A model generated the notes under the pieces. The model had not been told where the DNA came from and did no database searches. It was given only the letters and a program-made list of their open reading frames with translations. Of a stretch of 64,000 bases of DNA, positions 50,263 through 53,795 are shown piece by piece. Origin of the DNA: Patescibacteria group bacterium (lineage in GTDB: Bacteria; Patescibacteriota; Patescibacteriia; Patescibacteriales; UBA12465). Made by a program: the position numbers and the translations under genes. The stretch spans positions 64,221-128,220 of the forward strand of contig JBAYIC010000002.1 of assembly GCA_041665845.1 (NCBI GenBank), read 5' to 3'. How positions within the stretch are numbered: the stretch's first letter is position 1; each line of letters starts with the position of its first letter.

Positions 50263-51282
50263 ATGACTCATAAAAATATAATTAAAAAAATAGACGAAGC
50301 GGGCTTAGTTGGCCGTGGCGGAGCCGCTTATCCGACCGCTCATAAATGGGCGACAGTTAAAGCCGCTTTAAAAGGAAATAAAGCCGCTTATATTGTGGTT
50401 AATGGTTCCGAGGGCGAGCCGGGCGTTAAAAAAGATAGTTTCTTATTAGAAAATGAAACGGAAGAAATTATTAATGGAGTTTACTTAGCTTATGAGTTTT
50501 TAGGGTCAGCTCACGTTAAAAAAATCTATTTTTTCCTTAAGCACGAATATCATAAAAATTGTTTTAAGAAAATAAAAGAGATTTTAGAAAAGAAAAAATA
50601 TAAAACATTCGGAAAGAAAGTTGAGATTGTTATTAAGCCGGAATCGCCGTCTTATATCTGTGGCGAAGAAACGGCTATTTTAAATATTATTGAAGGCCAC
50701 CGTTCCGAACCAAGAATTAAACCGCCGTTTCCATCGACGTACGGTTTGCATGGCCAGCCGACTCTTGTAAACAATGTTGAGACTTTCTATGCGGTTAGCT
50801 TAATAGCTAAAGATAAGTATGAAGGAAAAAGATTTTATACTTTAGGCGGAGAGGTAAAACATCGCGGCGTTTTTGCGTTGGCGGCGGAAATGAGTGCCGA
50901 AGAAATTTTAAGAGCCACGGGAAATTATCCCAATTTTGATTTCTTTGTGATGATAGGTGGAGAAGTGTGCGGAGATTTGTTGCGCTCTGATCAACTACAG
51001 GCGCCAGTTGAAGGTTCAGGATTACTAATGGTATTTGATAAGAAGAAAACTGATCAGAAAAAGCTACTCGATTATTGGCTAAAATTTTATGAAGCTGAAA
51101 GCTGTGGTTTATGCACTGCTTGCCGGGAAGGAACATATCGCTTACGTGAACTAGCTAGTAAGCCGGAGTATGATAAAGAACTGTTTAATGATTTAATTCA
51201 TAATCTTGAAGAGTCTAGTCTTTGTTCGCTTGGTTCATCATTATCTATGACTATTAAAAGCAAACATGAAAATATAAATTAA
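50263..51282 (+). CDS. NuoF/HydB-like flavoprotein core (FMN/NADH site, SLBB, C-terminal 4Fe-4S), 339 aa
   Basis: GLVGRGGAAYPTAHKW, VVNGSEGEPGVKKD, YICGEETAILNIIEG, PRIKPPFP, LVNNVETF, ESCGLCTACREGT....LCSLG. Confidence 0.8.
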   Translation: MTHKNIIKKIDEAGLVGRGGAAYPTAHKWATVKAALKGNKAAYIVVNGSEGEPGVKKDSFLLENETEEIINGVYLAYEFLGSAHVKKIYFFLKHEYHKNCFKKIKEILEKKKYKTFGKKVEIVIKPESPSYICGEETAILNIIEGHRSEPRIKPPFPSTYGLHGQPTLVNNVETFYAVSLIAKDKYEGKRFYTLGGEVKHRGVFALAAEMSAEEILRATGNYPNFDFFVMIGGEVCGDLLRSDQLQAPVEGSGLLMVFDKKKTDQKKLLDYWLKFYEAESCGLCTACREGTYRLRELASKPEYDKELFNDLIHNLEESSLCSLGSSLSMTIKSKHENIN

Positions 51283-51294
51283 ATTTAAAAAACT

Positions 51295-52098
51295 ATGGAA
51301 AACATTAATTCAACGGCGCCTAGCATTGAAACTTCGACTCAGACTGGTGTTTCATCGGTCTCAATTAAAAAACCAAAGTTAACCCCCGTTTTTGATATTT
51401 TTAAAAATGCCGTTTTAATCTGGTGGAAGAATTTTGAGAAATTTTTAAGGGTTTATTGGGAAGGAATAAAACCGGCTATTATTCCCTTGATTATTATTCT
51501 TGTTCTGATGATTCTGAACTTCATTTTTATTGATAAAAAGGTAATTTCTACTCCACTACAAATGTTGGCTGGAATAGTGGTGGTTGCGGGAATGATTTAT
51601 ATTACGTATTTTGTTATTCGCGCTTACATGGGGGTATATTTATTAGTGAAGCATAATTATATCGGAGAAGTTAAAGAAATATTTCAAGAAACTAAAGCTC
51701 TTTTTTGGCCATATTTTTGGCTTTCAATTTTAACAATAATTTTAATTATTCTTTGGATGCTTTTATTGATTATTCCTGGTTTAATATTTTCTATTTTTTA
51801 TAGTTTTGCGGTTTATGCTTTTTTCTTCGAAGGGAAAAGAGGCATGGAAGCCATCCGTCGTAGTCGTGCTTTAGTAAAGGGTTATTTTTGGCCAGTACTT
51901 GGTCGATTATCTTTACTAGGTTTTATAATTTGGATTTTTGCCACCGTTATTTCTGCCCCGCTTTTTGCTATGCCAGAAGAGAGTATCGGTTATGCTGTTT
52001 GGAACGCGGTAGTCCAAATAATTAATTTTCTCATTGGTCCAATCGCTTTATTATTCTCTTATAATATCTATTCTGATTTAGTTAAAATTAAGCAATAA
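51295..52098 (+). CDS. Multi-pass membrane protein of unknown function (inserted between nuoF-like and hydA)
   Basis: 267 aa with about 5-6 hydrophobic helices. Its TAA stop overlaps the hydA ATG by 1 nt (TAATG at 52096-52100). Confidence 0.6.
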   Translation: MENINSTAPSIETSTQTGVSSVSIKKPKLTPVFDIFKNAVLIWWKNFEKFLRVYWEGIKPAIIPLIIILVLMILNFIFIDKKVISTPLQMLAGIVVVAGMIYITYFVIRAYMGVYLLVKHNYIGEVKEIFQETKALFWPYFWLSILTIILIILWMLLLIIPGLIFSIFYSFAVYAFFFEGKRGMEAIRRSRALVKGYFWPVLGRLSLLGFIIWIFATVISAPLFAMPEESIGYAVWNAVVQIINFLIGPIALLFSYNIYSDLVKIKQ

Positions 52099-53795
52099 TG
52101 TTTTTAAAAATAAACAACAAAAAATTTCCCGCCTCTCTAGGCCAAACAATTCTTGAAATCGCCCTGGAAAATGGTTTTACTATTCCTACTTTGTGCAATC
52201 ATCCTGATTTAGATGTTAGGGCTAGTTGCCGGGTTTGCGTTGTTGAAATTAAAGGAAAAGACAAGCTACAGGCTGCTTGCTCAACGTTAGCTGAAGAGGG
52301 AATGGAAATACAAATCGATTCACCGCGAGTGCAAAAATCGCGTGATTTAAATTTGAAAATGCTATTTGCTTCACATGTTGAAAAATGTATTGATTGTAAT
52401 CGCCGCTTTAATTGCACTTTACTGAATTTAGCGAGAACTTATAAAATAAAAATTACCAGTTTTCCTGATCGAAAGATTAAGCGCAAAACTTATAAGTTTG
52501 CTAATGCAGTTGAAATAGACGGAACACAATGTATTGATTGCGGTAATTGTATTCAAGCTTGTGATCGGCAAAATATTCATTATTTACACATAGAAGGTAA
52601 TGGATCTAGTCAAGAAATAAAACCAAATAAAAATAATAACAGCGCTTGTATTAATTGTGGACAATGTACTAATGTTTGCCCAGTTGCGGCCGCGGAAGAA
52701 CAAGGAGAATGGAAACAAGTCGAAGCGGCTTTAAAGGATGATAGCAAAGTTGTTGTTGCTCAATTTGCTCCGGCTGTTCGAGTATCTTTGGGGGAAGAGT
52801 TTGGGATACCTTATGGAACTAATTGTGCTAAAAAAATAAATACCGCTTTGAAGGTTCTTGGCTTTAATCATGTTTTTGATATTAATTTTGGCGCCGATAT
52901 TACGACAATGACTGAAGCGGACGAACTGATAGAAAGATTAAATAATAAAAAAGCGATTTTTCCGATGATGACCTCTTGTTGCCCGGCTTGGGTTTCTTAT
53001 GCTGAATTGTATCATCCCGAACTACTACCAAATTTAACTACTGCTCGTTCACCGCATATTCATAGTGCTGGAGCGATTAAAAGTTATTTTTCTAAGGAGA
53101 AAAAAATTAGCTCTAAAAAAATTGTTGTAGTTTCTATTGTTCCTTGTACGGCGAAAAAATATGAAGCAGTTAGGCCAGAATTAAAATACAAAGGACGGCC
53201 GTTAGTTGATCATGTTTTAACAACGCGTGAATTCGCTTTTATCTTGAAAAAAAATAAAATTGATTTTAAGAGTTTATCTGATAGTGAAACCGAATCAATA
53301 TTTAACGATGGTTCCGGTGCGGCGGCAATTTATGGCGCTTCGGGCGGAGTAATGGAATCGGCACTGCGCACCGCTATTTCTTTAGCCTGTAAGGCAAATA
53401 AAAATAAACTTTGTGCTAGTCGTTTAGAGTTTAAGGAGGTTAGGGGATTAAAGGGATTCAAAGAAGCTTCGGTTAATTTAGCGGGACATCAATTAAAAGT
53501 CGGGGTAGTAAATGGAATCGGAAATTTTGAGGCTATCTTGCCAAAACTTAAAAAATACCATTATATAGAAGTGATGGCTTGTTCGGGAGGATGTCTTGGC
53601 GGCGGTGGTCAACCAATACCAACGACTGATGCAATTAGAAAAAAACGCCTAGAAGGCATGTATAGTATTGATAGCGGCAAGAAGGTAAGGCGTGCCCATG
53701 AGAATAAACCGATGGTTGAATATTATGAATGGGTTAAAAAACATAAATTATCCGCTAATTTATTACATACTAAATTTTCCTTCAAAAAAAGATAA
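52098..53795 (+). CDS. hydA: [FeFe]-hydrogenase catalytic subunit, CpI-like domain architecture (2Fe-2S, His-ligated 4Fe-4S, 2x 4Fe-4S, H-cluster)
   Basis: H-cluster motifs TSCCPAW, VPCTAKKYE and EVMACSGGCLGGGGQP. N-terminal clusters: CRVCVVEI, HVEKCIDCNRRFNC, CIDCGNCIQAC, CINCGQCTNVCP. Confidence 0.92.
   Translation: MFLKINNKKFPASLGQTILEIALENGFTIPTLCNHPDLDVRASCRVCVVEIKGKDKLQAACSTLAEEGMEIQIDSPRVQKSRDLNLKMLFASHVEKCIDCNRRFNCTLLNLARTYKIKITSFPDRKIKRKTYKFANAVEIDGTQCIDCGNCIQACDRQNIHYLHIEGNGSSQEIKPNKNNNSACINCGQCTNVCPVAAAEEQGEWKQVEAALKDDSKVVVAQFAPAVRVSLGEEFGIPYGTNCAKKINTALKVLGFNHVFDINFGADITTMTEADELIERLNNKKAIFPMMTSCCPAWVSYAELYHPELLPNLTTARSPHIHSAGAIKSYFSKEKKISSKKIVVVSIVPCTAKKYEAVRPELKYKGRPLVDHVLTTREFAFILKKNKIDFKSLSDSETESIFNDGSGAAAIYGASGGVMESALRTAISLACKANKNKLCASRLEFKEVRGLKGFKEASVNLAGHQLKVGVVNGIGNFEAILPKLKKYHYIEVMACSGGCLGGGGQPIPTTDAIRKKRLEGMYSIDSGKKVRRAHENKPMVEYYEWVKKHKLSANLLHTKFSFKKR

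Follow-up and report, generated by a model that had tools for sequence, protein, structure and literature searches.

A NuoE/HydC-free pair of short NuoF-like flavoprotein and [FeFe] hydrogenase in Patescibacteria: a candidate minimal NAD(P)H-linked hydrogenase with a probably separate membrane protein between its genes

What is a gene for a polytopic membrane protein doing between the genes for a NuoF-type flavoprotein and an [FeFe] hydrogenase, and does its product belong to the enzyme? The question arises in a stretch of 64,000 nucleotides from a Patescibacteria group bacterium (assembly GCA_041665845.1, contig JBAYIC010000002.1), called the window here; loci numbered L0xx come from other genomes. 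In it, three co-oriented open reading frames (ORFs), a nuoF-like gene, the membrane ORF (MEMB) and hydA, follow each other with a spacer of 12 nucleotides before MEMB and an overlap of the MEMB stop with the hydA start in the sequence TAATG. The original prediction, whose coordinates and lengths for this trio proved exact (Table 1), put MEMB in the place of the missing HydC, as part of a membrane-tethered NADH:H+ oxidoreductase of unusual composition (NADH, reduced nicotinamide adenine dinucleotide; NADPH, its phosphate). We arrive at a different answer. With a probability of roughly 60%, the short NuoF-like protein and HydA would make up a minimal, soluble, two-subunit [FeFe] hydrogenase that is linked to NAD(P)H and free of NuoE/HydC, MEMB being separate from it. 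The composition is indeed unusual in its missing NuoE/HydC and its minimal flavoprotein, and it is the membrane-tethered part of that description that the evidence does not support.

By its domains and motifs, HydA is a group A [FeFe] hydrogenase of the M3 (CpI-like) type with every H-cluster and accessory ligand present. Its Pfam domains comprise Fer2_4, a NuoG-type 4Fe-4S domain (NADH-G_4Fe-4S_3), two [4Fe-4S] domains of Fer4 families, Fe_hyd_lg_C and Fe_hyd_SSU. The ligands of the [2Fe-2S] cluster (C33/C44/C47/C61) and of the His-ligated [4Fe-4S] cluster (H93/C97/C100/C106) are in place, together with CxxCxxCxxxC motifs at 145 and 184 (145-156 and 184-195), and the H-cluster motifs L1 (TSCCPAW, 292), L2 (PCTAKKYE, 349) and L3 (EVMACSGGCLGGGGQP, 491) all fit the consensus sequences against which they were tested (TSCCPxW, PCxxKxxE and ExMACxxGCxxGGGQP). 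The three H-cluster motifs and full CpI-like set of accessory clusters originally claimed are thus intact, and across the clade these ligands vary only conservatively. With 440.5 bits the protein passes TIGR02512, the subfamily model for group A (cut-off 405.95 bits); its best named NCBIfam model is that of the NADH-dependent A6 type, at 612 bits and under that model's cut-off of 765, and its top sequence match in the PDB is HydA1 of T. kivui HydABC (432 bits, compared with 398 bits for CpI). In the most distant trio-bearing genome (L040), HydA is 521 residues long and 41% identical to that of the window; all four [2Fe-2S] cysteines and the first cysteine of L1 (SSACPAW) are lost, L2 is altered (VACPAKKEE) and the small-subunit domain is absent. 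This HydA may be a decaying or functionally altered hydrogenase.

The flavoprotein upstream is, as originally described, a minimal NuoF/HydB core of 339 residues with a site for flavin mononucleotide (FMN) and NADH and a CxxCxxC...C cysteine set. Pfam finds Complex1_51K (E=7.8e-34) and NADH_4Fe-4S (E=8.8e-13) and nothing else: a NuoE-like domain, the N-terminal domain of NuoF and a C-terminal ferredoxin domain are all missing. The alignment to Aquifex NuoF covers residues 50-403 of the latter, and the first ~48 residues of canonical NuoF are missing, in a region that is missing throughout the short-NuoF clade. The AlphaFold2 (AF2) model (mean predicted local distance difference test score, pLDDT, 86.8) superposes on HydB and NuoF chains with query-normalised TM-scores (TMq) of 0.84-0.88, and it spans only ~71% of the Aquifex NuoF structure. 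The motifs GRGGAAYPT, NGSEGEPG, YICGEETA, PRIKPPFP and NNVET are intact, as are the N3 cysteines C281/C284/C287/C321, the sole CxxCxxC...C set of the protein (281-321). An alignment-based check of short NuoFs found the motifs for FMN and NADH and each of the four N3 cysteines invariant (37 of 37 sequences), a pattern indicating that the cofactor sites of these proteins are under selection. In a search of 1.84 billion representative proteins, NuoF-only proteins of 320-365 residues formed the top-scoring clade, and long N-terminally extended forms scored lower. We also applied two criteria for bifurcation from PMC7311640, the residue after the PGx position and the GGPSG motif. Two residues after the EPG motif stands an invariant lysine (K57), which is typical of non-bifurcating beta subunits, and GGPSG, a motif of bifurcating HydB, is absent. 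A 702-residue protein from a JGI metagenome (P0258) carries a short NuoF fused to an Oxidored_q6 domain (E=7.9e-16), which is of the NuoB or [NiFe]-hydrogenase small-subunit type; because of this fusion, the NuoE-less NuoF module may also feed [NiFe]-type enzymes.

Judged by its gene neighbourhoods, the pair is NuoE-less. We built a hidden Markov model (HMM) on the N-terminal, NuoE-like domains that long HydB/NuoF representatives carry. It found a fused or adjacent match at 75 of 76 canonical NuoF/HydB loci among the matches listed, the exception being cut by a contig end, and at 0 of 41 short-NuoF loci; the canonical loci, taken from a metagenome scan, serve as a control set and not as a census. 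The same model gave no match at E<=10 in the window and 43 loci, and held-out positives gave E-values of 1e-12 to 1e-45. The 64-kb window itself holds no NuoE-type 2Fe-2S motif and no nuo genes. The missing NuoE/HydC partner of the original prediction therefore stands as a property of the whole set of short-NuoF loci, the fusions described next included.

The combination of short NuoF and HydA also recurs where the rest of the neighbourhood does not. In four unrelated neighbourhoods (L041, L042, L043 and L048), a short nuoF-like gene abuts or overlaps hydA, and in L046, on the same rpsB-tsf-PSP1-gap backbone as in the window, the two genes are three nucleotides apart and MEMB is absent. The NuoF-like proteins of these five lineages are just 36-46% identical to that of the window. 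Moreover, two natural single chains exist in which a short NuoF is joined to an M3 HydA by a linker of ~10 residues, with no NuoE-like or membrane segment (P0256, 885 residues, and P0266, 918 residues); the two fusions are independent of each other, and the P0266 gene was verified on its contig (L039). Taken together, these comparisons support the view that short NuoF and HydA form a conserved, recurrent unit and no accident of this genome.

The protein encoded between them has a different character. MEMB is predicted to have six helices with both termini inside (AF2 pLDDT 87.2), in agreement with the 267-residue multi-pass protein first proposed. It contains no cysteine and a single non-conserved histidine, and the family alignment shows no conserved position of either kind; because of this, MEMB cannot replace a [2Fe-2S] subunit. 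Its mean column identity of 50% is high for a membrane protein, and its cytoplasmic loops are conserved and positively charged. Against the Pfam family UPF0259 (PF06790) it scores E=1.3e-3 and 19 bits, below the gathering threshold of 31.4, but 21 of 25 family members match UPF0259 at E<=0.01 (best E=4e-7), and the likeness lies over the C-terminal four helices. A fold search of the model against the PDB returned no meaningful match (best E=0.9). MEMB thus resembles UPF0259/YciC in a weak profile similarity and in being polytopic, and differs in falling under the gathering threshold and in having a fold without a solved structure; as UPF0259 is a family without known function, the comparison explains nothing of mechanism. 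In the orthologues of L034 and L035 (Table 1), and in protein P0236, a hydrophobic insertion of ~25 residues, probably an additional helical hairpin, precedes the conserved FYSxAxYxFFFE segment.

The distribution of MEMB across genomes bears on its relation to the hydrogenase. Scanning the MEMB alignment over species-representative genomes yielded 33 loci, 30 of which have the order nuoF-MEMB-hydA on a backbone of rpsB-tsf-PSP1-gap, an optional gene for a short-chain dehydrogenase/reductase (SDR), the trio, cca and a peptidyl-prolyl isomerase (PPIase) gene; the closest species-level relatives are labelled Candidatus Falkowbacteria. The other three (L034, L035 and L038) read gap-MEMB-cca; both the nuoF-like gene and hydA are absent there, and the spacing leaves no space for remnants of either. 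With the trio, the gap-nuoF-hydA arrangement of L046 and these gap-MEMB-cca loci, all three states therefore occur on one backbone. Trio-bearing L040 and L046, with its MEMB-less pair, lie at similar distances from the window, and the backbone identities, by which L040 is more distant than L034, L035 and L038, suggest that these three lost their hydrogenase genes secondarily. Outside this lineage no short-nuoF/hydA pair comes with MEMB, and L046 and the NuoF::HydA fusions lack it too, so that the pair occurs without it in L039, L041-L043, L046 and L048. A 240-residue ORF after the L039 fusion gene was considered as a MEMB relative and rejected (hhalign probability 0.5%). The synteny of MEMB with hydA, which had been singled out as a check, accordingly holds in about 30 species-level genomes and breaks down in L034, L035, L038, L046 and all of the outside pairs.

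If MEMB served the hydrogenase, its conserved positions might be expected to follow the presence of that enzyme, and they do not. Among 53 positions that are at least 90% conserved in trio-linked MEMBs, the three hydrogenase-less orthologues keep 43, 41 and 31, and the trio-bearing L040 keeps 22. The idea that MEMB co-evolves with the hydrogenase is rejected on this count, because orthologues without a hydrogenase keep more of the conserved positions than the distant hydrogenase-bearing L040; as far as these alignments go, MEMB conservation follows phylogeny rather than hydrogenase presence. Most likely, MEMB is a distantly UPF0259/YciC-like protein that is probably co-transcribed with the hydrogenase genes, has a function of its own and is not needed by the hydrogenase.

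Among characterised systems, the closest in design are the S. wolfei HydABC (SwHydABC), the S. aciditrophicus HydAB (SaHydAB) and the fungal hydrogenase with NuoEF, which share with the window pair an M3 HydA and a NuoF-type subunit with FMN and a [4Fe-4S] cluster, and in which, as here, the extra clusters of bifurcating HydB are absent. The beta subunit of the SwHydABC/SaHydAB type, which has FMN, an NADH site and no cluster other than B1/N3, has its counterpart in the window, whereas the gamma or NuoE-like subunit does not: those enzymes keep a NuoE-like [2Fe-2S] protein, either separate or, in SaHydAB, fused to the N-terminus of HydB, and the window pair has none nearby. The bifurcating HydABC enzymes (A3/Bfu) of T. 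maritima, A. woodii and T. kivui include the closest HydA relatives, at 432 and 416 bits compared with 398 bits for CpI; their HydB core is matched by the NuoF-like model with a TMq of 0.86-0.87, and there too hydA neighbours a nuoF-type gene. However, the window lacks a nearby HydC as well as the N-terminal [2Fe-2S] and C-terminal 2x[4Fe-4S] domains of HydB, and because the pair is without the B2-B5 domains and an adjacent HydC/BfuC, it fails the defining features of HydABC/Bfu (PMC9304861). CpI of C. pasteurianum, a monomeric, ferredoxin-dependent A1 enzyme, matches HydA in domain architecture, length and cluster set but has no dedicated flavoprotein partner, whereas the window HydA is genetically coupled to a NuoF-type module that is fused to it in relatives. 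With NuoF/Nqo1 of complex I, the flavoprotein shares its fold and its FMN, NADH and N3 ligands, yet it reaches only 206.4 bits against the NuoF equivalog TIGR01959 (cut-off 558.65) and lacks the N-terminal region, an accompanying NuoE and other nuo genes nearby. In the openly searchable literature, subscription papers aside, neither a NuoE-less short-NuoF/HydA pair nor a NuoF::HydA fusion turned up.

By analogy with complex I and HydABC, NADH from glyceraldehyde-3-phosphate dehydrogenase (GAPDH) would reduce the FMN in the NuoF core, and the single [4Fe-4S] cluster (N3/B1) would hand electrons one by one to the N-terminal [2Fe-2S] cluster of HydA, from which they would run along the three HydA [4Fe-4S] clusters to the H-cluster and convert protons to H2. 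This is also the chemistry to be expected from the SwHydABC/SaHydAB type, and since the NuoF-like protein has none of the clusters implicated in bifurcation (B2-B5 and C1), we expect an enzyme that does not bifurcate, has no need of ferredoxin and releases H2 only while the H2 partial pressure is low. Schut 2022 (PMC9304861) reports that B2-B5 are missing in non-bifurcating homologues and that the BfuA-type subunit receives its electrons from B1; NADH-driven H2 evolution is favourable only below ~60 Pa H2 (PMC7311640). Glycolytic reductant would in this way be disposed of as H2, which would suit a fermentative, partner-dependent Patescibacteria cell without a respiratory chain; Patescibacteria are generally described as fermenters lacking electron-transport chains (PMC7507113). 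The genetic context is consistent with such a role: gap precedes the pair at every backbone locus, and at L046 too, and is found close to it in L048, and a pyruvate kinase gene (pyk) directly precedes the fusion gene in L039, so the recycling of glycolytic NADH suggested from the window alone appears plausible. Gene content, cofactor motifs, their conservation, the fusions and the patterns of presence and absence are shown by the sequences, whereas complex formation, specificity for NADH versus NADPH, catalytic direction and H-cluster maturation are points that we infer.

Several points weigh against a soluble two-subunit enzyme with MEMB apart from it. The nuoF-MEMB-hydA order is kept by about 30 species-level genomes as well as by the distant L040; roughly half of the trio loci show, like the window, a MEMB stop that overlaps the start of hydA, an arrangement that would fit co-translation of partners; and an uncharacterised transmembrane protein of 4-6 helices, 'hyd6TM', accompanies archaeal group A [FeFe] hydrogenases (PMC11216029; Greening et al. 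2024). A membrane partner for such enzymes is thus not far-fetched, although hyd6TM, named in figure legends alone, is likened to MEMB or to the ECF-S-like ORF discussed below by description only. Together with the good conservation of MEMB and its positively charged cytoplasmic loops, these points could be read to mean that MEMB replaces HydC/NuoE and anchors NuoF-HydA to the cytoplasmic face of the membrane as a three-part tethered NADH:H+ oxidoreductase, which we regard as quite unlikely. A protein without cysteine or histidine ligands is no stand-in for a 2Fe-2S protein; MEMB persists at gap-MEMB-cca without the hydrogenase, the pair persists in L041-L043, L046, L048 and the fusions without MEMB, and MEMB conservation does not follow hydrogenase presence. 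Nor is the tight spacing telling, although the 12-nucleotide spacer and the TAATG overlap do bear out the tightly coupled unit of the original prediction. On the strand that holds 52 of the 57 window genes and elsewhere in the window, same-strand gaps have a median of 27 nucleotides and measure 15 or fewer at 18 of 47 junctions (9 nucleotides from hydA to cca), so that tight spacing and overlaps are generic and no special mark of the trio, and the predicted transcription unit takes in cca and the PPIase gene as well.

Other objections concern the redox chain and its direction. All characterised NADH-dependent [FeFe] hydrogenases keep a NuoE-type module, and a NuoF without one may for that reason be unstable or need an extra partner; our negative result for NuoE spans ~78 kb of this genome and flanks in other genomes. 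HydE, HydF and HydG genes are likewise missing from the 64-kb window, as first reported, and from ~14 kb of extra flank and ~45 related loci; the sole ORF with a radical S-adenosylmethionine (radical-SAM) motif in the window is RlmN-like (Table 1), and the 64 kb contain no HydF-like GTPase. One may add that the losses in L040 HydA show that the system can decay. That the NuoF-like protein depends on a redox partner, NuoE-type or other, from elsewhere in the genome, or that the hydrogenase stays unmatured, leaving it inactive or non-catalytic, is nevertheless very improbable in our estimation. In both proteins, the cofactor ligands are all under purifying selection throughout the clade, the fusions do without a NuoE module, the N-terminal NuoF region is missing clade-wide, and most archaeal genomes with [FeFe] hydrogenases are without HydEFG, yet their enzymes are active heterologously (PMC11216029). 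It is also conceivable, though unlikely, that the pair takes up H2 from neighbours or a host, or uses NADPH, and makes NAD(P)H rather than shedding glycolytic NADH. Enzymes of the HydAB(C) type are reversible, and purified S. aciditrophicus HydAB runs in both directions (PMC7311640); the ~60 Pa ceiling on H2 evolution points the same way, and nucleotide specificity is unreadable from the motifs that were checked. Against uptake speaks the recurrent genetic link to gap and pyk, and hence to NADH production, and fermenters without electron-transport chains, as Patescibacteria are generally described (PMC7507113), more obviously need an outlet for reductant. A minimal soluble NAD(P)H-linked hydrogenase remains the reading that we prefer.

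A different membrane protein adjoins the hydrogenase genes in relatives. It is a hydrophobic ORF of ~170 residues immediately next to hydA, absent from the window, with weak similarity to the S components of energy-coupling factor (ECF) transporters (Pfam ECF_trnsprt, E=5.6e-7 at best). Of its positions 23 are invariant, among them those in HxxxxTGPxxNA and WxQxxTA. This ECF-S-like ORF occurs in all 5 evaluable nuoF/hydA pairs without MEMB and in 7 trio loci; it has no NCBIfam match, and nine loci gave no Rfam riboswitch at gathering score. As a candidate membrane protein with a link to the hydrogenase it is stronger than MEMB; alternatively, it may import a vitamin (perhaps riboflavin). One could imagine NuoF-HydA docking on a small polytopic protein, MEMB in Falkowbacteria-type genomes and the ECF-S-like protein, possibly hyd6TM, elsewhere, as a membrane-associated and perhaps HydEFG-free enzyme; we find this highly doubtful, but if it were true, organisms without a respiratory chain would possess a membrane-associated NADH:H+ oxidoreductase.

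An ORF of 88 residues that matches the Pfam family PF21699, 'putative Fe-only hydrogenase system regulator' (E=1.4e-7; TM1266-like), lies 3' of hydA in six trio loci and is also present in a hydrogenase-less relative (L045) with the order murB, TM1266-like ORF, cca. As a lead to the maturases it was tried and set aside: the divergent contexts L044 and L045 were checked and have no HydEFG, none of the loci examined has HydEFG genes near a TM1266-like ORF, and the gene persists without hydrogenase. Fourteen of the related loci come from bins titled 'uncultured Gammaproteobacteria bacterium' (L008, L010, L014, L018, L019, L022-L025, L028, L031 and L035-L037). These bins share the Falkowbacteria-type backbone and 70-80% protein identity with the window and with metagenome-assembled genomes (MAGs) of Falkowbacteria and Patescibacteria, and their titles look like default mislabels.

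The window has a GC content of ~35% and a minimal gene set that includes lower glycolysis. At gathering score Rfam has no match in the whole 64 kb, and thus no tRNA, rRNA or riboswitch. Pfam domains confirm that gap and an SDR gene lie directly upstream of the trio. In a consensus scan, strong terminator-like hairpins around the trio are confined to 5' of gap and 3' of the PPIase gene, with no hairpin comparable to the latter between hydA and cca, and the predicted transcription unit is gap-SDR-nuoF-MEMB-hydA-cca-PPIase. The SDR gene is an optional neighbour: roughly half of the related loci do without it, and L002 has a NUDIX gene in its place. With TTG as start codon, its ORF overlaps the end of gap by 20 nucleotides, and an in-frame ATG at 49497 would leave a gap of 10 nucleotides. 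Beyond the PPIase gene, an ORF of 292 residues with a signal-peptide-like N-terminus is flanked by two strong terminator-like hairpins; among related loci it is kept only in L006 (72%) and L013 (56%), and it is a variable insertion within an otherwise rigid backbone.

Table 1. Positions of the trio, its neighbours and the related features discussed in the text (window coordinates unless a locus is given)
Feature	Position	Strand	Description
nuoF-like	50263-51282	+	339 aa; Complex1_51K and NADH_4Fe-4S
MEMB (membrane ORF)	51295-52098	+	267 aa; six helices, between the two hydrogenase genes
hydA	52098-53795	+	565 aa; group A [FeFe] hydrogenase, M3
gap (GAPDH)	48476-49486	+	Pfam Gp_dh_N/C; first gene of predicted transcription unit
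SDR	49467-50234	+	Pfam adh_short_C2, 1.8e-69
Terminator-like hairpin 3' of PSP1	48382-48409	+	Consensus scan, predicted
Promoter-like site TTTAAA-17-TATAAT with TG	48413-48441	+	Consensus scan, predicted
Strong terminator-like hairpin 3' of PPIase gene	56058-56088	+	14 bp stem; consensus scan, predicted
292-aa ORF	56191-57069		Signal-peptide-like N-terminus
RlmN-like ORF	34911-36011		Radical-SAM motif
MEMB orthologues with insertion	L034:7001-7801; L035:7040-7861		Extra hydrophobic segment of ~25 residues
L040 hydA	L040:9789-11354		521 aa
ECF-S-like ORF	L002:13572-14108; L012:9496-10119; L014:9518-10102; L020:9530-10087		
ECF-S-like ORF	L023:9440-10027; L032:9425-10009; L008:4512-4757		L008 copy cut
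ECF-S-like ORF	L041:7492-8004; L042:7047-7562; L043:10727-11239; L046:9029-9562; L048:3144-3653		
TM1266-like ORF	L004:13590-13856; L019:6924-7181; L020:10083-10346; L024:9562-9825		
TM1266-like ORF	L029:9518-9781; L031:8632-8895; L045:10001-10267		

The probable bystander status of MEMB is of practical use in its own right, as it keeps a wrong 'membrane-bound hydrogenase' annotation from spreading. A design without NuoE, known here from genomics alone, would mildly surprise specialists. If our reading of the pair is true, no smaller NADH-linked [FeFe] hydrogenase would be known; it would consist of two subunits, or of one chain of ~900 residues in the fusions, with a cofactor set of one FMN, five Fe-S clusters and the H-cluster. 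The NuoE/HydC module, kept in every characterised NuoF-type enzyme, would then be dispensable for NADH:H+ oxidoreduction, a point that would matter to the debate over what the off-pathway [2Fe-2S] cluster (N1a/C1) does, and the engineering of NADH-driven H2 production would gain a compact module. For the organisms themselves, it would account for the re-oxidation of glycolytic NADH in many Patescibacteria without respiratory chains.

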